A stretch of DNA of 32,000 nt from Nitratidesulfovibrio vulgaris str. Hildenborough (GCF_000195755.1 NC_002937.3:2850001-2882000); one strand, 5' to 3'. Shown: positions 20,485-28,888, counted from the stretch's first letter. Made by a program: numbers and translations. The notes: a model not told the origin generated them from the sequence alone.

Positions 20485-22863
20485 CTAGCGTTCGCCAGCC
20501 CTGAGTCGGGCCTCGCGCGCTTCAGCCACATGGCCACGGGCGTCGAGGGCACGCGCCAGTTCAAGCCAGCCCTGCTTGAGGTCGGGACGCAGGGCGACAC
20601 TCTGCCTGGAGAGGGCCTCGGCCATGGCCGGGTCTTCTCCGCCATCAAGATAGAGACGGGCCATCAGCTGCAAGGCCACGGCATCCTGCGGATTACGCAA
20701 CAGGGCGTCGTGCAGATGCTCACGGGCCTCGTCGGGGCGGCCCTGTCGCATGGAGAGACGGGCGAGGTTGCGGTGGACGAGGCCGCCGGAGTCTCCCGCA
20801 CGGGCCGCCTTGTTGAAGTACTGGCGGGCCTGCGCGTAACGCTTCTCCCCTTCGGCGAGTTGACCGAGGCGCACCAGCGCGAAGACATGGCCCGGTGCGT
20901 ACTTGAGGCATTTCCGGTACTGCTTGCGGGCTTCGGCCGTCTCACCCAGCGACTGGCAGACCGTGCCAAGGTTGTACAGTGCCATGGGGTCGCCCGGCTT
21001 GCGTTGCAGCGCCTGTTCGAAGTAGCGGCGCGCCTCGCCGTGCCTGCCGAGACCCGCCATGCACACACCAAGCGAATTCCACGCCATGGTGTTGCCTTCG
21101 TCCGCCAGCAGGGCCGTCTTGTACTCCTCGATGGCACCGAACGTATCGCCGAGGCTGAACCGCTTGTCGGCGCTGATGTTGAGGGCCAGCGAATCGAAGA
21201 TGCCCACACGCGGTTCAGGCAGCAGCAAAGCGTATTCGAGGGCCTTGAGGGCGTTCTCCAGCGCGTCCGCCCTGCGGTAGGCGAGGAAGGGGTGGCACCC
21301 CACACCCACCGCGGCGTCGATGCGCAACCGCTTCGACAACAGGTCGCACAGCTGGCGGTAGCTTTCGCGCGCCGCGTCGCATGTCATATCGGGGTGGAAG
21401 AACACGATGCTGTTCAGGCCGTATCGCCCACCCAGAGTCTCTGCGCCGAAATGGTCGCGGCACAGTTGGGCAGCCTCCGCCATGAGCTGTTCGGGGTGCG
21501 AGGCACGCCCTTCCGGGTCGCGCCCGTCGTCGCTGAAGCGGACCAGCGCAAGGGCGAAGCAGTCGCAACCTTCGCGTGCCTCACTCCAGCGGGCGAGGAA
21601 GTCGCCATGCCGGTACAATCCGGTGAGGGGGTCCACCTGCACGCCGCTGGCATCGCGCCGGGCATCACCGCCCTTCTCCTCGGGCAGCAGGGTGAGCCTG
21701 TCGCCGGGTTCGATGGGCCACGTCGGGTCGCCAAGGTGCAGGATTTCAGCCACGCTCCGGTCTTCACGCACCTCAAGCAGCACGACCTCGCCCTTGTAGA
21801 GTGGCTGACGCGGTTCATGCGTCCCCCCGCGCACGGGATAGGCCACCGACCACACCGAGAAACGCTGCCCCTCGCGGGCGTTCATGCTCCGGCCCAGATT
21901 CACCATCACCCGCGAGAGGGGATGCGTCTCCACCACGGCCCCCCCCTCGGCGAGGATACGGGCGAAGCCCATCACACCGGGGCCTTCGCTGCCCTCACCC
22001 TCACCGGCAACGGCTGCCGCCAGACGCGCCTTGCGCAGCAGCACCCTCGCCTGTTCGGCCATGTCACGCTCGAACAGCGCCCCCTCCATGTCGCGGGGGT
22101 AGACGGCGTAACCAGCCGACACGCAGACGCGCACGGCCTTCTCCGTCAGTCCGCACCGCAGCGACACGGCGCTGAGGCGTTGCACGGCCTCTTCGGCCAG
22201 CTTGCGGCAGACGCCAGAGGCGGCCGCAGGAACCAGCAGGGCGAACTCGTAGTCTCCGGTGCGGGCCGCAAGAGCCTGTTCGGGCGCAAGGGCCGACAGT
22301 TCGCGGGCCAACTCTGTCGTGAGCCTGTCGGCGAAGGTGTAGCCGTGGTCACGCGCCACCTGCCGCAGCGAGGCGAGACGCACCACCACAAGTCCCATGC
22401 AGGCCCTGTGCAACGGTGCACCGAGGTCTCCCTCGCCCTCGGGCGGGTTGGCGAAACAGGTGCGCACATGGTCGGCCTCGCGCGCCATCCGTTCCACGAG
22501 ATGCTGCCGGGTGGACAGCCCGGTCAACGCATCGGTGCGCCCGGCCTTGTAGAGGGCGAGGTTCTCCATGCACAGCGCCAGCAACCCCGGGAAGGCGGGC
22601 ATCAGCGACCGCACGATGCGTCGGGGCACCCCGCGGGCCACGAACACGGCAAGCAGGGCGCCACCATGGATGAGCGGCAGCAGCAGCCGCCCCTCACCGG
22701 GCAACCACAGGGGTTCCACCGTCTCCGCCTCGCGGGGGAAGTAGAGACTGTAGGCCTTGAACGGCAGGAAACGCGACACGGCTTCGCGGAGGCGGGATTC
22801 GAGGGCGATGAGGTCGCGCCGCGAGAGTTCCGCCTCACGGCTGAGGAGTGCTGGTGCTGTCAT
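20485..22863 (-). CDS. Multidomain signalling protein: N-terminal sensor-like segment, degenerate GGDEF domain 1 (GDYEF), beta-rich middle domain, degenerate GGDEF domain 2 (GLNSI), C-terminal TPR repeats
   Basis: DALTGLSTRQHL ... ARTGDYEFALLV and DPLTGLYRHGDFL ... GGRYGLNSIVFF follow GGDEF-domain spacing, but the signature is not intact in either. The C-terminal ~230 aa has repeated TPR-like units (AWNSLGVCMAGLGRHGEARRYFEQALQRKPGD, ALYNLGTVCQSLGETAEARKQYRKCLKYAPG, and more). I set the start at ATG 22863 (MTAPALLSRE...). The track start 23655 would run through the divergent nitroreductase gene. Confidence 0.75.
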   Translation of the reverse strand: MTAPALLSREAELSRRDLIALESRLREAVSRFLPFKAYSLYFPREAETVEPLWLPGEGRLLLPLIHGGALLAVFVARGVPRRIVRSLMPAFPGLLALCMENLALYKAGRTDALTGLSTRQHLVERMAREADHVRTCFANPPEGEGDLGAPLHRACMGLVVVRLASLRQVARDHGYTFADRLTTELARELSALAPEQALAARTGDYEFALLVPAAASGVCRKLAEEAVQRLSAVSLRCGLTEKAVRVCVSAGYAVYPRDMEGALFERDMAEQARVLLRKARLAAAVAGEGEGSEGPGVMGFARILAEGGAVVETHPLSRVMVNLGRSMNAREGQRFSVWSVAYPVRGGTHEPRQPLYKGEVVLLEVREDRSVAEILHLGDPTWPIEPGDRLTLLPEEKGGDARRDASGVQVDPLTGLYRHGDFLARWSEAREGCDCFALALVRFSDDGRDPEGRASHPEQLMAEAAQLCRDHFGAETLGGRYGLNSIVFFHPDMTCDAARESYRQLCDLLSKRLRIDAAVGVGCHPFLAYRRADALENALKALEYALLLPEPRVGIFDSLALNISADKRFSLGDTFGAIEEYKTALLADEGNTMAWNSLGVCMAGLGRHGEARRYFEQALQRKPGDPMALYNLGTVCQSLGETAEARKQYRKCLKYAPGHVFALVRLGQLAEGEKRYAQARQYFNKAARAGDSGGLVHRNLARLSMRQGRPDEAREHLHDALLRNPQDAVALQLMARLYLDGGEDPAMAEALSRQSVALRPDLKQGWLELARALDARGHVAEAREARLRAGER

Positions 22864-23108
22864 GGTTCCGGTATATAGCCCGACGTCGCCCCGATGAAAA
22901 GCGTCAAGCATGTGAAGATGCGGATTTCGTTCATGAACAAAGGAACGGCGGCACGTAGCCCTTACCCGTCCGGCCCCTGTGACATCAGGACAGGGAACAT
23001 GGTGACATCCACACCATGATAAAGCCCTTGAGCCCCTGCGGGATGCGGCCCCGGGCTGGTCGATGCGCAGGCGGCCCCTGCCAGTCTCACCCGACCGATG
23101 CCTTTGAC

Positions 23109-23137: not shown

Positions 23138-23199
23138 TTTCCGCTGTGGCAGCAGCGCATGGCGCCATGCGGCCCGAATCTTCCCCGAGGAGACCCGGC

Positions 23200-23718
23200 A
23201 TGACACAGCAGGACGTCATACTCTGCGCCATCCGCGAACGGCGTAGCGTACGGCATTACACCGGCGAACCGGTCGCCCGCGAGACCGTGCGCACCATCCT
23301 TGATGCGGGCCGATGGGCCCCCAGCGGCCTCAACAACCAGCCATGGCGGTTTCTCGTCGTCTTTCCGGGCGACCCGCGGCAGGAAGTGCTCGCAGGGCTC
23401 ACCAAGTACGCACGCATCGTGCGCGAGGCGGGGGCGCTCATCATGGTGTGCCTCGAACGCCAGCGCATGTACAATGCCATGAAAGACCATCAGGGCGCCG
23501 GGGCCTGCATCCAGAACATGCTGCTTGGCGCACACGCCGTCGGCCTCGGGGCCGTCTGGCTTGGCGAGATCGTCAATCGTGGCGATGAGGTGCTCACTGC
23601 CACGGGCCTTTCGCCCGAACGTCTCGAACTCATGGCCGTCGTCGCGCTGGGCCACCCCGAACGCGCTGGCGGCGGCGACCGCATCCCCCTTGACGACATG
23701 CTTCTGGAGCCCTTCTGA
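23200..23718 (+). CDS. Nitroreductase-family FMN oxidoreductase
   Basis: AIRERRSVRHYTGEPVARETVRTILDAGRWAPSGLNNQPWRFLVV is the classic nitroreductase N-terminus. GAGGAG lies 7 nt upstream of ATG 23200. Confidence 0.85.
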   Translation: MTQQDVILCAIRERRSVRHYTGEPVARETVRTILDAGRWAPSGLNNQPWRFLVVFPGDPRQEVLAGLTKYARIVREAGALIMVCLERQRMYNAMKDHQGAGACIQNMLLGAHAVGLGAVWLGEIVNRGDEVLTATGLSPERLELMAVVALGHPERAGGGDRIPLDDMLLEPF

Positions 23719-24344
23719 TGCCTATCAAGACCTTTCCCCTCGGCCCGCTGGAGACCAACTGCCACCTCGTCCACAACGGCAGGACGGCCGTCGTCGTCGA
23801 CCCCGGCGGTGCTCCGCGCCCGGTGCTCAACTATCTGGAGATGCAGGGCCTCACCCTCACGCACATCCTGAACACGCACCTGCACTTCGACCACATCTAC
23901 GGCAACGCAGCCCTCGCCGCAGCCACGGGCGCGCCCATCCTCGCCAGTGCGGGTGACGCCTTCCTGCGGCAGACCGAACTCGGCAAGGGCGGGGCCTTCG
24001 GCTTTCCGGCTGTCGACGACTTCACGAGCATCGACCTCGAACCGGGCGAACACCGCTTCGGCGACCTCGCGTGCACCGCCTTCGCCACCCCCGGGCACAC
24101 ACCGGGCAGCCTCTCGTTCTATTTCCCCGAAGAGGACACCATCATCGTCGGCGACCTCATCTTCTACCGTTCCATAGGCAGAACGGACTTTCCCGGTGGC
24201 GACCTCGAAAAACTGCGGGCCTCCGTCCGCGACCACATCTTCACCCTGCCGGGCAAGACGCGCATCCTGCCCGGGCACGGCCCCGCCACATCGGTGGACG
24301 ACGAAACACGCAACAACCCGTATTTCGGAGACTTCGCCGTATAG
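23718..24344 (+). CDS. MBL-fold metallo-hydrolase (GloB/hydroxyacylglutathione-hydrolase-like)
   Basis: THILNTHLHFDHIYGN contains the HxHxDH zinc motif. PGHTPGS and LPGHGP are later metal ligands. The start ATG overlaps the nitroreductase stop (TGATG). Confidence 0.85.
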   Translation: MPIKTFPLGPLETNCHLVHNGRTAVVVDPGGAPRPVLNYLEMQGLTLTHILNTHLHFDHIYGNAALAAATGAPILASAGDAFLRQTELGKGGAFGFPAVDDFTSIDLEPGEHRFGDLACTAFATPGHTPGSLSFYFPEEDTIIVGDLIFYRSIGRTDFPGGDLEKLRASVRDHIFTLPGKTRILPGHGPATSVDDETRNNPYFGDFAV

Positions 24345-24362
24345 CGAAGCCCGGAGGACAGC

Positions 24363-24599
24363 ATGGACGGCAAGACCATCGACCTGCGTGACAAGTGTTG
24401 AGGCGTCGGCCTGGAGGTACGGTGGTACCTCATGTATGACGGGACCTCGCCGCTGACCTTCATGCTGCGCCCCGATACCGTGGGACAGGCGCTGGAGGCC
24501 ACGAGCATCGTTCCCGGCTGGCAGGCGGAGAGCACCGTCACGCCCGAAGGGGCGACCGTACGCTTCACCCGGATGGTCGCAAAGGAGCACACGGCATGA
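24363..24599 (+). CDS. Candidate selenoprotein: TusA/SirA-like sulfur-carrier protein with in-frame TGA (24399-24401) read as Sec; 78 codons
   Basis: GGAGGA lies 4 nt upstream of ATG 24363. Translation: MDGKTIDLRDKC-U-GVGLEVRWYLMYDGTSPLTFMLRPDTVGQALEATSIVPGWQAESTVTPEGATVRFTRMVAKEHTA. G/C at codon position 3 is 10/12 before the TGA and 9/10 in the 10 codons after it. IDLRDKCUG aligns by eye with the TusA LDxxGLxCP motif, with U on the catalytic Cys. The stop overlaps the next gene's ATG (ATGA). Neither part reaches the 60-aa threshold of the ORF track. Confidence 0.55.
24414..24431 (+). other. SECIS-like hairpin (GAGGUAC-GGUG-GUACCUC) 12 nt downstream of the in-frame UGA
   Basis: Perfect 7-bp stem with a 4-nt loop containing GGU. 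Position and loop resemble the minimal E. coli fdhF SECIS (stem-loop about 11 nt after UGA, G-U in the apical loop). The 5' arm also contains a GGAGG-like sequence. Confidence 0.5.
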
Positions 24600-25210
24600 C
24601 GCCTGTCGCACACCCCGCCCGCGCCCTCGCGTGCAGCCCGCGCGGAGGCGGCAACACCGATACGGCCACGGCCCTGTTCGCACAGGGCTTCACCGATGCC
24701 GGCGGGCGCATCGAGGTGGCGCATCTGCGTACCTACCACGTCGCCCCCTGTGTCTCGTGCCAGCACTGCGAGCGTTCCCCAGAAGGTTCATGCCCTCTCT
24801 CGCCTACCGACAACAGCACACCGCTGTTCGACATGCTGCTCACGGCTCCGACACTGTTCATCGCCTCGCCCATCTACTTCTACCATCTTCCGGCGCAACT
24901 GAAGGCGTTCATCGACCGGGGGCAGAGTCACTGGATACGCCGCGCGCGGGGTGACAGCACCCTCGAGTCGCTGCCGCGCCGCACGGCGTGGGTGACGCTG
25001 GTGGCAGGGCGCAAACAGGGCGAAAGACTCTTCGAAGGCAGTCTCATCACGTTGCGCTACTTCCTGCGCATCTTCAACTTCGACCTCGCCCCGCCGCTGA
25101 CGCTGCTGGGATGTGACGACGCGGCATCTCTGGGCGGCAACACCGACCTCGCAGCCCGAGTGCACGCCTACGGGGCACAGGCAGCGCGCCACTGCCCCCC
25201 TGCATCGTGA
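24596..25210 (+). CDS. Iron-sulfur flavoprotein / NADPH-dependent FMN reductase family (Isf-like)
   Basis: ALACSPRGGGNTD is a flavodoxin-like FMN loop. The compact Cys cluster CVSCQHCERSPEGSC (CxxCxxCx7C) resembles archaeal/bacterial Isf. LFIASPIYFYHLPAQLKAFIDR is also present. AAGGAG lies 8 nt upstream of the ATG. Confidence 0.8.
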   Translation: MTPVAHPARALACSPRGGGNTDTATALFAQGFTDAGGRIEVAHLRTYHVAPCVSCQHCERSPEGSCPLSPTDNSTPLFDMLLTAPTLFIASPIYFYHLPAQLKAFIDRGQSHWIRRARGDSTLESLPRRTAWVTLVAGRKQGERLFEGSLITLRYFLRIFNFDLAPPLTLLGCDDAASLGGNTDLAARVHAYGAQAARHCPPAS

Positions 25211-25301: not shown

Positions 25302-26198
25302 ATGGCCCCCATCCGGTACATGGCGACTCTGCGGGCCCATGTCCGCATGTGGCTGCACAGACTGCGCCTTGACGAACGCCGTTGCGCGATGTGCCTCGCC
25401 CCGTTCGCCCCCGACATCCCCCCTCTTCCCCCCTCATTCCCGGATAACGCCCCGTGGCGACCCGGTCGGCATGACGGACACGAACCATCAACGCCACCAC
25501 ACGGGCAGGGCGATGCCCCTGGCGGGCAGGATGCCGCACCCGTACGCGCCGCGCCGCCCTCACCCTCGCAACTCTGTCCGCACTGCCTCGCCATGATGCC
25601 TCGCAGAATGGCCGGATTCTGCCCGTACTGCGGCGACCTCTTCCCGGCGCACCACGCGCCCTGCACCCCCTGCGCCCACTGCCTCCGTGAAACTCCGCCG
25701 TGGCGGCACCTGTGCTTCTACGGAAGCTACGAACATGCTTTGCGCCAATTGCTTCTGCAGGCGAAGTTCCATAGCGACCCCACCGCCGCCCATATCGCCG
25801 GTGAACTTCTCGCCAGCGTCTGCGCCGACCTGCCACATCCCGACGCCATCGTGCCCGTACCGTTGCATACGGCGCGACTGCGCGACCGGGGTTTCAACCA
25901 GTGTGTCGAGGTGGCGCGTCCCATCTCACGCATCCTGCAAGCCCCCTTGCGCCCCGACCTTCTCGCCCGCACCCGCCATACCCCTCCACAGACCGGACTG
26001 CATCGCAAGGAAAGGCTGCGCAACCTGCGCGAAGCCTTCGCCGCCTCTCCGTGCTGCGCGGGGCTGCACCTCCTGCTTGTGGACGACACCATGACCACCG
26101 GCACCACTCTCGCCCATGCAGCGCGGCACCTTCTGGCCGCCGGGGCCGCCAGTGTGGATGTGGCCGTTGTGGCACGCACACCCAGACATTTCGGGTAG
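25302..26198 (+). CDS. ComF/GntX-family phosphoribosyltransferase-domain protein
   Basis: N-terminal CxxC pairs (CAMC, CPHC, CPYC, CTPCAHC) and a C-terminal PRT motif LLLVDDTMTTGTTL, plus VPVPLH. The start could be a later Met. Confidence 0.75.
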   Translation: MAPIRYMATLRAHVRMWLHRLRLDERRCAMCLAPFAPDIPPLPPSFPDNAPWRPGRHDGHEPSTPPHGQGDAPGGQDAAPVRAAPPSPSQLCPHCLAMMPRRMAGFCPYCGDLFPAHHAPCTPCAHCLRETPPWRHLCFYGSYEHALRQLLLQAKFHSDPTAAHIAGELLASVCADLPHPDAIVPVPLHTARLRDRGFNQCVEVARPISRILQAPLRPDLLARTRHTPPQTGLHRKERLRNLREAFAASPCCAGLHLLLVDDTMTTGTTLAHAARHLLAAGAASVDVAVVARTPRHFG

Positions 26199-26564: not shown

Positions 26565-26620
26565 GAAGCAACATCTTTTAGGTGTTTCATATGTCACTTC
26601 GCCAAACAGAAGGAGTCATC

Positions 26621-27403
26621 ATGAGAATCTCGCGCCTTTTCGCCGCCCTCCTCGTACTGGGCATGGCGTCCCCCGCTTTCGCCCATTTCGGCATGGTCAT
26701 CCCCGACGCCCCGGTCGCCACGCAGGCCAAGAAGACACTCGGCCTCAACATATCCTTCTCGCATCCGTTCGAGGGCAAGGGCATGGACATGGCCCGCCCG
26801 CAGGCGTTCAGCGTCATCCGCATGGATGACGGCAAGGCCGAACGCACCGAACTGCTGGCCGCGTTGCAAGAGACCAAGGTCATGGGCAAGGCCGCATGGA
26901 AGACCGACTACAAGGTGGCACGGCCCGGCGTGTACCAGTTCGTGCTCGACCCCGCACCCTACTGGGAACCCGAAGAGAACGTCTTCATCCGCCATCTGAC
27001 CAAGGTCGTCGTGCCTGCGTTCGGCGCCGAAGAGGGATGGGACACCCCTGCCGGCCTCAAGTTCGAAATCGTGCCGCTCACCCGCCCCTTCGGCAACTTC
27101 GCGGGCATGACCTTCACCGGGCAGGTGCTTCTTGAAGGCAAGCCCGCCGCCGGGGTCGTGGTCGAAGCCGAACTCTACAACAAGGGCAAGTTCACGCCTC
27201 CCACGGAATACAACGTCACCCAGAGCGTGAAGACCGACGCCAACGGCGTGTTCTCGTTCACCTGCCCGCAGCCCGGCTGGTGGGGCTTTGCCGCGCTGAC
27301 CACCGACAAGGACACCCTCAAGGGGCCCGATGGCGCGGACAAGGAGATAGAACTGGGCGCAGTGCTGTGGACGCACTTCGACGCATGGAAACAGGGCAAG
27401 TAG
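26621..27403 (+). CDS. Secreted DUF4198-family protein (COG5266-type periplasmic Ni/Co-binding component)
   Basis: AAGGAG lies 5 nt upstream of ATG 26621. Signal peptide MRISRLFAALLVLGMASPAFA followed by HFGMVIP (N-terminal His after cleavage, typical of this family). Beta-rich sequence with GKPAAGVVVEAELYN ... DANGVFSF, a transthyretin-like motif. Confidence 0.75.
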   Translation: MRISRLFAALLVLGMASPAFAHFGMVIPDAPVATQAKKTLGLNISFSHPFEGKGMDMARPQAFSVIRMDDGKAERTELLAALQETKVMGKAAWKTDYKVARPGVYQFVLDPAPYWEPEENVFIRHLTKVVVPAFGAEEGWDTPAGLKFEIVPLTRPFGNFAGMTFTGQVLLEGKPAAGVVVEAELYNKGKFTPPTEYNVTQSVKTDANGVFSFTCPQPGWWGFAALTTDKDTLKGPDGADKEIELGAVLWTHFDAWKQGK

Positions 27404-27512: not shown

Positions 27513-27911
27513 ATGCGTTTTTTGATCGTCGAAGACGACTTCACCAGCCGCAAGTTCCTGCAGAACATGCTTGCACCTTTCGGGGAGTGCGACATAGCCG
27601 TGAACGGCGTCGAAGCCGTCGAAGCGTTCAAGACCGCGCTCGACTCCAGTGTACCCTATGACCTTGTCTGTCTTGACATCATGATGCCCGAGATGGACGG
27701 ACACGAAGCGTTGCGGGCCATGCGTTCCATCGAACGCGAAAGAGACGTCGCCCCGGCGCAGGAAGTGCCCGTGGTCATGACCACGGCACTCGACGACCCC
27801 AAAAACGTGGTGGAAGCGTATTACAAGGGCGGGGCCACATCGTATGTGCCCAAGCCCATCGACAGGCAGCTGTTCCTGCAACTGTTGCGGAACCTCGGCG
27901 TCCTCCACTGA
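27513..27911 (+). CDS. Single-domain CheY-like response regulator
   Basis: MRFLIVEDDFTSRKFL ... DLVCLDIMMPEMDGHEAL ... VVMTTAL ... YVPKPI carries all receiver-domain hallmarks (DD, phospho-acceptor D, T, K). GGAGG lies 4 nt upstream. Confidence 0.9.
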   Translation: MRFLIVEDDFTSRKFLQNMLAPFGECDIAVNGVEAVEAFKTALDSSVPYDLVCLDIMMPEMDGHEALRAMRSIERERDVAPAQEVPVVMTTALDDPKNVVEAYYKGGATSYVPKPIDRQLFLQLLRNLGVLH

Positions 27912-27952
27912 AGCCCGCGCGGGTGAGCGCTTGCGCGGTAGCCCCACGAGCC

Positions 27953-28888
27953 ATGACACACTTCCGCAAATCCTTCTTCGTTGCCGCGTTCTGTGCGGCA
28001 CTGGTTCTCTGCATGTCCCCCCTCGCCGATGCCAAGCGCATGGGCGGCGGAGGGTCTTTCGGCAGCAGGCCGTCCATGCAGCGCTCGTTCACGCCCACGC
28101 CCCAACAGGCGCCGCAGATGCAGCGCCAGCAGACGCCCACCCAGCAGGGCATCAACCAGCAGAATCCCGGTGCAGCACAGCAACCCGGCATGGCACAGCA
28201 GCCGCGCCGCGGTCTCTTCGGCGGCATGGGCGGCTTCCTCGGCGGCATGCTCGCTGGCGGGCTTCTCGGGTCGCTGTTCTTCGGCGGCGGCTTCGGCGGT
28301 ATGCCGGGCATCCTCGACATGCTGCTTCTGGCCCTCGTGGCCTACGGCATCTTCAAGTTCATCTCCATGCGTCGTCAGGCCGCCAATCCCCAGCCCGCAG
28401 CGGCGGGGTACGGCGCACACACCTCCCCTTCCGACAACGACAACGGATGGGGCACGCTACGCAGCGCCCCGCAGGGCGGCACGACCTATCAGGAACAGGC
28501 CGGGCCTGAAGTCCCCGCCGGGTTCGACATCGAGCAGTTCATCAAGGGTGCCAAGATGGCCTTCACCCGCTTGCAGGCGTCGTGGGACAAGCGCGACCTT
28601 GAAGACATCTCCCAGTTTTCCACCCCTGCGGTGCTGGATGAGATACGCAGGCAGGCCGAAGCCGACCCAGTGCCCTCCACCACGGAGATACTGCTGGTGA
28701 ACGCCAACCTTCTCGGCGTCGTCGAAGAGAACGGCCAGCAGACAGCCACCGTGTTCTTCGACGTCCTGCTGCGCGAAGACCCCAGACAGGATGCCCCCAC
28801 CTCGGTGCGCGAGGTATGGCATTTCGTCAGACCCGTCAAAGGCACGGGCATGTGGCAACTCGACGGCATCCAGCAGGTCGACCAGTAG
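27953..28888 (+). CDS. Tim44-like-domain membrane protein (Gln-rich and Gly-rich linker, one TM, C-terminal Tim44-like domain)
   Basis: Signal/anchor MTHFRKSFFVAAFCAALVLCMSPLADA, a Q-rich stretch, GLFGGMGGFLGGMLAGGLLGSLFFGGGFGG, then FDIEQFIKGAKMAFTRLQASWDKRDLEDISQFSTPAVLDEI ... WHFVRP ... WQLDGIQQ, typical of bacterial Tim44-like proteins. Confidence 0.75.
   Translation: MTHFRKSFFVAAFCAALVLCMSPLADAKRMGGGGSFGSRPSMQRSFTPTPQQAPQMQRQQTPTQQGINQQNPGAAQQPGMAQQPRRGLFGGMGGFLGGMLAGGLLGSLFFGGGFGGMPGILDMLLLALVAYGIFKFISMRRQAANPQPAAAGYGAHTSPSDNDNGWGTLRSAPQGGTTYQEQAGPEVPAGFDIEQFIKGAKMAFTRLQASWDKRDLEDISQFSTPAVLDEIRRQAEADPVPSTTEILLVNANLLGVVEENGQQTATVFFDVLLREDPRQDAPTSVREVWHFVRPVKGTGMWQLDGIQQVDQ

Follow-up and report, generated by a model that had tools for sequence, protein, structure and literature searches.

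The proteins of the TusA/SirA/YeeD (TsuB) family (PF01206, COG0425) are sulfur carriers of about 75–80 residues with a two-layer β-α-β-α-β-β fold, as seen in E. coli TusA (1dcj/3lvj), the SirA-like DSY4693 (3hz7) and YeeE-YeeD (8j4c/8k1r), and TusA and YeeD carry their persulfide on a cysteine (Cys) of the β1-α1 loop, where helix 1 begins. Their partners are IscS, DsrE, rhodanese or YeeE. Mammalian thioredoxin reductase bears, on the flexible tail of the flavoenzyme, a C-terminal Gly-Cys-Sec-Gly redox centre, in which Cys is followed by selenocysteine (Sec or U). Adjacent Cys and Sec residues are also found in the CU-motif selenoproteins (SaoL, SaoC, HgcA, MbdU, Csac_0668 CopZ-like and KCU-star/DUF466; PMC13188914), whose database entries are typically cut short at the CU site. 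YedF-type or 'SirA-like' proteins, which are tied to selD and selenium metabolism, are Cys proteins proposed to act as accessory factors near selD or yedE and are not reported as selenoproteins (PMC2432076, PMC5322559). Here we analyze a small gene of the sulfate reducer Nitratidesulfovibrio (Desulfovibrio) vulgaris, located at 24363..24599 on the plus strand of a window of 32,000 nt (the whole stretch of DNA that was analysed; all coordinates are positions in it). With a probability of roughly 0.8, we read 24363–24599 as one gene in which a UGA is recoded to Sec, giving a 78-residue TusA/SirA-like protein whose adjacent Cys12 and Sec13 would serve as a relay.

The Shine-Dalgarno (SD) sequence GGAGGA (24353..24358; this and all other features of the small gene are on the plus strand) lies 4 nt before the start codon ATG 24363. 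Direct translation from this ATG gives 12 codons (MDGKTIDLRDKC) up to an in-frame TGA (24399..24401), and the same frame runs past ATG 24432 to the TGA at 24597–24599, amounting to 78 sense codons with one internal TGA. The predicted product, MDGKTIDLRDKC-U-GVGLEVRWYL...KEHTA, has 78 residues with Sec at residue 13, immediately preceded by Cys12 (codon TGT, 24396..24398), its neighbour in a vicinal C-U dyad. The count of G or C at third codon positions was 10/12 before the TGA and 9/10 after it, and the terminal TGA overlaps ATG 24596 of the following flavoprotein gene as ATGA. A sequence-only reading of this stretch had listed these features together with the hairpin described below, and all of them were reproduced by re-reading 24200–24800 and translating 24363–24599. 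Its description of the gene as hidden between called genes holds for the full frame, which had been overlooked, but the last 55 codons (24432..24599) are already annotated as the 'hypothetical protein' AAS97238.1 / Q727T8, an N-terminally truncated form. The same reading argued that the 55-aa open reading frame (ORF) alone lacks the active site; indeed, the C-U dyad lies upstream of ATG 24432 and is conserved across 19 loci. The start Met of the annotated 55-aa form is confined to the N. vulgaris clade; elsewhere this position is Arg.

A word-indexed protein search with the read-through product returned only the N. vulgaris 55-aa ORFs or near-identical relatives, and a metagenome scan with the 78-aa query likewise gave near-identical N. 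vulgaris contigs only; one contig of 94% identity keeps the ATG, the frame and the TGA, its changes being mostly at third positions. Since so few relatives were obtained by protein search, 47 loci were gathered via the downstream flavoprotein and then searched with the read-through peptide. In eight of them (25–37% identity) the frame of the small gene immediately preceded the flavoprotein gene, with a stop after the conserved Cys, and this internal stop was TGA in every extracted ORF; a ninth locus (L044) had C-P-C and no stop. A profile search for the small protein yielded 67 database clusters, and DNA of Pseudodesulfovibrio, Desulfocurvus, Desulfomicrobium and metagenomic members was fetched. 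These members shared the arrangement [ILF]D[ILF]R[DG][KR]C-TGA-[GH]VG, with a start codon and an SD sequence upstream.

Altogether, tblastn and hidden Markov model searches gave 19 distinct Sec-form loci from at least five genera (Nitratidesulfovibrio, Pseudodesulfovibrio, Desulfocurvus, Desulfomicrobium and metagenome-assembled genomes (MAGs)), with 23–39% identity. The Sec column was TGA in 19/19 and TAA or TAG in 0/19 of these, and the preceding Cys was invariant (19/19) while its codon switched between the synonymous TGT and TGC. An SD-like GGAGG/AGGAG preceded the start codon in most of 18 tabulated loci, being weak or absent in L018, L019, L051 and L057, and the start codon of L056 was GTG. 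Pairwise variation at the first, second and third codon positions was 0.36/0.27/0.52 over the 8 codons before the TGA vs 0.36/0.31/0.51 over the 20 codons after it; this match, together with the TGT/TGC alternation, indicates that both flanks of the TGA are translated in one frame.

An exhaustive HMMER search of 1.84 billion representatives gave 75 members. Nearly all of the 67 clusters and 75 representatives were 'hypothetical proteins' of 53–69 aa whose start is a GTG or ATG closely following the TGA, and short database entries that start past a TGA are the usual footprint of a putative selenoprotein gene that was mis-called. Three representatives were longer: P0008 (C-P-C), P0136 (S-C-G, whose Cys occupies the Sec column) and P0122. 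The Cys forms P0008 and P0136, rare as they are (2 of ~75 representatives), read straight through the TGA position, and the 'W' of P0122 corresponds to a TGA called under another genetic code. P0122 (L060:82-321), in which the metagenomic caller put Trp for the Sec TGA, presumably under code 4 or 25, is the sole 'full-length' Sec-type entry in the protein databases.

Sec use is documented in D. vulgaris, for which 8 selenoproteins including SelD are known (PMC1794560), and the small protein is absent from these eight (PMC1794560; PMC1914089). The proposal of a Sec-decoded UGA with a selenocysteine insertion sequence (SECIS) in a 78-aa protein thus gained strong support from the comparison of orthologous loci, in which the TGA column (19/19), the in-frame conservation of the upstream codons as well as the downstream flank, the Cys forms P0136 and P0008 and the hairpin all agreed. 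On these comparative data, we regard it as highly probable that this is a genuine, mis-annotated selenoprotein gene.

The SECIS-like hairpin GAGGUAC - GGUG - GUACCUC (24414..24431; stem 24414–24420, loop 24421–24424, stem 24425–24431) starts 12 nt after the UGA and has a perfect 7-bp stem. The fold of 24396–24450 had an energy of −23.5 kcal/mol (z = −2.7 vs dinucleotide shuffles), and the hairpin fits the published bSECIS model (PMC13188914), having a 7-bp stem, a 4-nt loop starting with GG, 19 nt from UGA to loop and −11.8 kcal/mol. A hairpin was found at the same place after the TGA in 19/19 loci, 15 of which, the window included, agreed with this model. When synonymous codons were resampled with the peptide kept, the real sequence exceeded the mean stability of the samples in each of the loci tested (18/18); for the window z was −2.4, with 2.4% of the samples equally stable. 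The window stem uses GUA for Val, a codon that makes up only 5% of Val codons in the neighbouring genes. The window hairpin is more than chance.

The family falls into two subfamilies in which the hairpin is kept, in registers one nucleotide apart, although the encoded peptides differ (EVxWYL vs DAxWHL). Members with GVG-x-E-V/I-x-W-Y-L have the stem GAGGUA/UACCUC, and members with HVG-x-D-A-x-W-H/R/Y-L have the stem GAUGCC/GGCAUC and the loop AGUU. Paired cells accounted for 94% and 86% in the two subfamilies, vs 28–71% in slid controls. The HVG/D-A register was observed in L018, L019, L022, L027, L032, L054, L058 and L059, as compared with the register of the window (24414–24431, 18 nt from +16 after the U of TGA), and the Leu codon follows the register, being CUC in 9/10 of the GVG/E-V group and CUG in 6/8 of the HVG/D-A group.

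Regarding the identity of the protein, models were made with AlphaFold (AF2) for two database homologues, the Cys form P0008 and the Sec-type member P0122. The P0008 model (predicted local distance difference test (pLDDT) 94.6, predicted template modelling score (pTM) 0.83) has the topology β(2-5)-α(11-24)-β(29-34)-α(36-48)-β(52-60)-β(63-70) and places C10-P11-C12 at the N-terminus of helix 1; the P0122 model (pLDDT 84.9, pTM 0.70) has the same topology and places C20-U21-G22 in the loop immediately preceding helix 1, whose first residue is 23. With either model as query, Foldseek ranked the SirA-like 3hz7 first in the Protein Data Bank (PDB), at a template modelling score (TM) of 0.67–0.72, and the P0008 model gave TM 0.77–0.81 with the TusA-like YeeD domain of YeeE-YeeD and 0.55–0.62 with TusA itself. 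The small protein thus resembles the TusA/SirA/YeeD proteins in size, in its modelled two-layer fold, for which they are the best whole-domain PDB matches, and in the modelled location of its reactive residue. Judging from these models, a TusA-like fold is probable, and the reactive dyad would sit at the TusA active-site location, in the loop before helix 1.

The earlier assignment 'TusA/SirA-like' is therefore borne out for the fold and the active-site location, through the two AlphaFold models and the top match 3hz7, but not for family membership at the sequence level, where no detectable sequence or profile similarity was found. The Sec forms have C-U-G-V-G or C-U-H-V-G and no CPxP motif, and a vicinal Cys-Sec dyad stands in place of the single Cys of TusA. 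As for the claim that U falls on the catalytic Cys of TusA, Sec is at D+6 when counted from the conserved Asp of strand 1 (D), as is TusA Cys19, and the Cys of P0136 is also there; the neighbouring conserved Cys, at D+5, lines up with the 'CP' of the Cys form P0008, a CP motif found only in P0008 while the Sec forms have C-U-G or C-U-H. The correspondence is plausible but unproven.

Several observations weigh against reading the locus as a TusA/SirA-like selenoprotein gene. The genes selA/B/C/D are not in the window, where Rfam and tRNA scans gave no selC and no SECIS family match, and a literature search by the protein's accessions found no paper; Sec incorporation is a prediction. On a strict reading of the bSECIS model, 4/19 hairpins fail, and covariation was weak, with one pair changed on both sides per subfamily and column shuffles not exceeded; because this covariation is not significant, the structural argument rests on conservation, position and codon choice. 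The searches against the TusA/SirA family that the sequence-only reading had proposed came back negative: there was no match in Pfam (E ≤ 1 for the window protein, E ≤ 10 for 11 members) or in NCBIfam (window protein or 18 members), nothing relevant in PDB sequence and profile searches (E ≤ 10), no BLASTP match to E. coli TusA (query sequence identical to 1dcj), and a probability of 0.3% when the 18-sequence full-length family alignment was compared by hhalign with four TusA-family PDB sequences. The sole local alignment in that hhalign run, at this probability of 0.3%, puts Sec on TusA Cys19. Because all sequence and profile searches were negative, membership in PF01206 is undemonstrated by sequence. 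Foldseek E-values were only 3e-3 to 2e-2, Alba and IF3-C, which share the superfold, were also among the matches, and one to three sequences underlie the N-terminal 14–20 residues of both AF2 models. Finally, the conserved cluster contained no cysteine desulfurase, rhodanese, DsrE or YeeE partner in the loci examined, and, with no desulfurase, rhodanese or DsrE there, a carrier function is purely inferred.

The small gene lies in a cluster of plus-strand genes. A nitroreductase-family gene (23146..23718, its true start probably downstream of 23146) comes first, also in the Pseudodesulfovibrio and Desulfocurvus loci. It is followed by a gene for a metallo-β-lactamase (MBL)-fold hydrolase (Lactamase_B, glyoxalase-II-like; 23718..24344), which is immediately upstream of the small gene in nearly all loci. 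The FMN_red/Flavodoxin_2 flavoprotein gene (24596..25210), whose start overlaps the stop of the small gene, directly follows the small gene in every locus having it, and a ComF-like phosphoribosyltransferase gene (25302..26198) is, by synteny, the conserved last gene. The flavoprotein is Isf-like: its motif CX2CX2CX7C (PCVSCQHCERSPEGSC) is typical of iron-sulfur flavoproteins (Isf), and its only Pfam match was FMN_red/Flavodoxin_2. The order nitroreductase - MBL hydrolase - [small gene] - flavoprotein - ComF-like phosphoribosyltransferase is conserved across Desulfovibrionales, which upholds the linkage to the flavoprotein and MBL genes noticed in the sequence-only reading.

The gap between the MBL and flavoprotein genes was 214–267 nt where the small gene was present (exception: L031, 1288 nt), and the stop of the small gene always overlapped the flavoprotein start or was within a few nt of it. 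In the 38 loci without it, the MBL and flavoprotein genes abut in most (about −18 to +70 nt), with gaps of 103–261 nt in L023, L048 and L026 and no MBL gene on that strand in five. In Desulfovibrionales, the small gene is thus an optional cassette within a conserved cluster of MBL, flavoprotein and ComF genes. The 261-nt gap of L026 was considered as a divergent copy and rejected, since it is an AT-rich, repeat-like spacer with no open frame; this element in the selenoprotein slot (L026:3713-3974, a Desulfovibrionaceae MAG) has internal inverted repeats and may be a small mobile or repeat element. In L031 (L031:2686-3760), about 1.3 kb of extra DNA lies between the MBL gene and the small gene, unlike in all other loci. 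Upstream of the cluster and divergent from it is the gene of a large GGDEF + TPR protein (20485–22950, minus strand), and a similar gene occupies the same position in Desulfomicrobium (L054) and lies nearby in Desulfocurvus (L055). Downstream, the window encodes a DUF4198 protein (26582–27403), a stand-alone response regulator (27513–27911) and a Tim44-like domain protein (27923–28888), where Pseudodesulfovibrio and Desulfocurvus have rplU-rpmA-obg after the cluster instead.

In the mechanism that we propose, translation would start at ATG 24363, and UGA 24399–24401 would be decoded as Sec by SelB and Sec-tRNA under the guidance of the hairpin at 24414–24431, followed by termination at TGA 24597, coupled through ATGA to the flavoprotein gene. 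The product would be a TusA/SirA-like β-α-β-α-β-β domain with vicinal Cys12-Sec13 in the loop just before helix 1. This dyad might accept an atom of sulfane sulfur or of selenium, or else an oxidising equivalent, and resolve the load into an intramolecular selenenylsulfide, which the translationally coupled Isf-like Fe-S flavoprotein might re-reduce, so that with the upstream MBL hydrolase they would make up a thiol/persulfide-processing or detoxification module. The partners would thus be an MBL hydrolase and an Isf-like flavoprotein, unlike those of TusA/SirA/YeeD proteins. The GCUG centre of thioredoxin reductase offers a chemical analogy only: here too a vicinal Cys-Sec is followed by Gly and could form an eight-membered selenenylsulfide ring reduced by a flavoprotein, but on a separate small TusA-fold protein rather than on the tail of the flavoenzyme. 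Like the YedF-type proteins, the small protein would be a TusA-like domain associated with selenium biology, but it would carry Sec itself and is not encoded beside sel genes. We put forward this specific function, a Cys-Sec chalcogen or redox relay, as a tentative one, with the odds somewhat against it.

A serious functional rival keeps the same Sec protein but takes the dyad as a ligand of a soft metal, metalloid or organometal (Hg, As, Cu, Ni), like SaoL, SaoC, HgcA, MbdU and the CopZ-like protein. Predicted metal or organometallic selenoproteins repeatedly contain CU dipeptides (PMC13188914; bioRxiv 10.1101/2022.07.06.499078), and the missing desulfurase, rhodanese and DsrE suit this view as well. 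However, no metal transporter or regulator was conserved beside the small gene in the loci examined, the top structural matches are sulfur carriers (SirA-like, YeeD), and as conserved partners the small protein has a hydrolase and a redox flavoprotein, so we consider metal binding unlikely, though a good deal less so than the alternatives to Sec decoding that follow.

If the current annotation were right, UGA 24399 would end a 12-codon leader peptide, the hairpin would be regulatory or incidental, and a separate 55-aa protein would be made from ATG 24432 or, in other genera, from the GTG/ATG that closely follows the TGA. Gene callers yield exactly such short ORFs, a GTG stands two codons past the TGA in many loci, and in the window GGAGGU lies 13 nt upstream of ATG 24432; but the internal start is not conserved: in N. 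vulgaris it is an ATG 11 codons past the TGA (+11), other loci have a GTG/ATG at +2 to +4, and in L005 none of the nine codons that follow the TGA is a start codon. Against a leader, the 8 upstream codons keep a protein motif (xDxRxxC) and vary as coding sequence does, the stop is TGA without exception (19/19), and the Cys forms run on through this position. In both AF2 models, moreover, the upstream segment supplies strand 1 and the beginning of helix 1, so that a truncated product would miss an integral β-strand. These points leave the leader peptide very improbable. Equally improbable is read-through by a near-cognate or suppressor tRNA inserting Trp, Cys or Arg: its products would likewise conserve both flanks and one metagenomic gene call has W here, but that W is merely TGA under another genetic code, a SECIS-type hairpin with G in the first two loop positions lies at the canonical distance, the host is a known Sec decoder, homologues put Cys in place of the TGA (the usual Sec/Cys signature), and the codon before the TGA always specifies Cys, an arrangement shared with other CU-motif selenoproteins (PMC13188914).

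Returning to the Sec-containing TusA-like protein, we compared it with catalogued families. A 2026 inventory of 119 prokaryotic selenoprotein families (PMC13188914) contained no TusA/SirA-like family and none with matching features; BSepDB tables and Haft & Tolstoy 2025 were outside this comparison, so an earlier description is possible. The small protein shares with the CU-motif selenoproteins the adjacent Cys-Sec, here as K-C-U, and the truncation of its database entries, but the folds and families are unrelated, and the CU of KCU-star is C-terminal where that of the small protein is N-terminal, before helix 1. NCBIfam models of the CU-motif families (SaoL, SaoC, HgcA, MbdU, CopZ-like, KCU-star) matched 0/18 members at E ≤ 1. 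Identity with KCU-star/DUF466, SaoL and other CU-motif families was thus rejected, their motifs being different and no NCBIfam match being found, and identity with the deep-Sep 'hypothetical protein DG/DW/DF' families was rejected on the same grounds. The deep-Sep pipeline discards candidates without Cys homologues (PMC12013277), and the dependence of deep-Sep-type searches on such homologues, here ~2 in 75, plausibly explains why this family was overlooked.

We therefore lean, by a narrow preference, towards an uncatalogued family that would be the first selenoprotein with the TusA-type sulfur-carrier fold, in which Sec is nearly obligatory and a Cys-Sec selenenylsulfide/persulfide relay would operate between an MBL hydrolase and an Fe-S flavoprotein, missed for ~20 years in D. 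vulgaris Hildenborough. It exposes a blind spot of current selenoprotein finders, which drop families without Cys homologues. Since N. vulgaris is genetically tractable, both the prediction and the function of the nitroreductase-MBL-Sec protein-flavoprotein cluster are directly testable. If true, it would give a heavily studied model anaerobe its ninth selenoprotein and lead to the correction of dozens of 'hypothetical protein' entries, now truncated, throughout Desulfovibrionales, and the use of Sec would reach the TusA-like sulfur-carrier fold, joining a sulfur-relay architecture to selenium chemistry.

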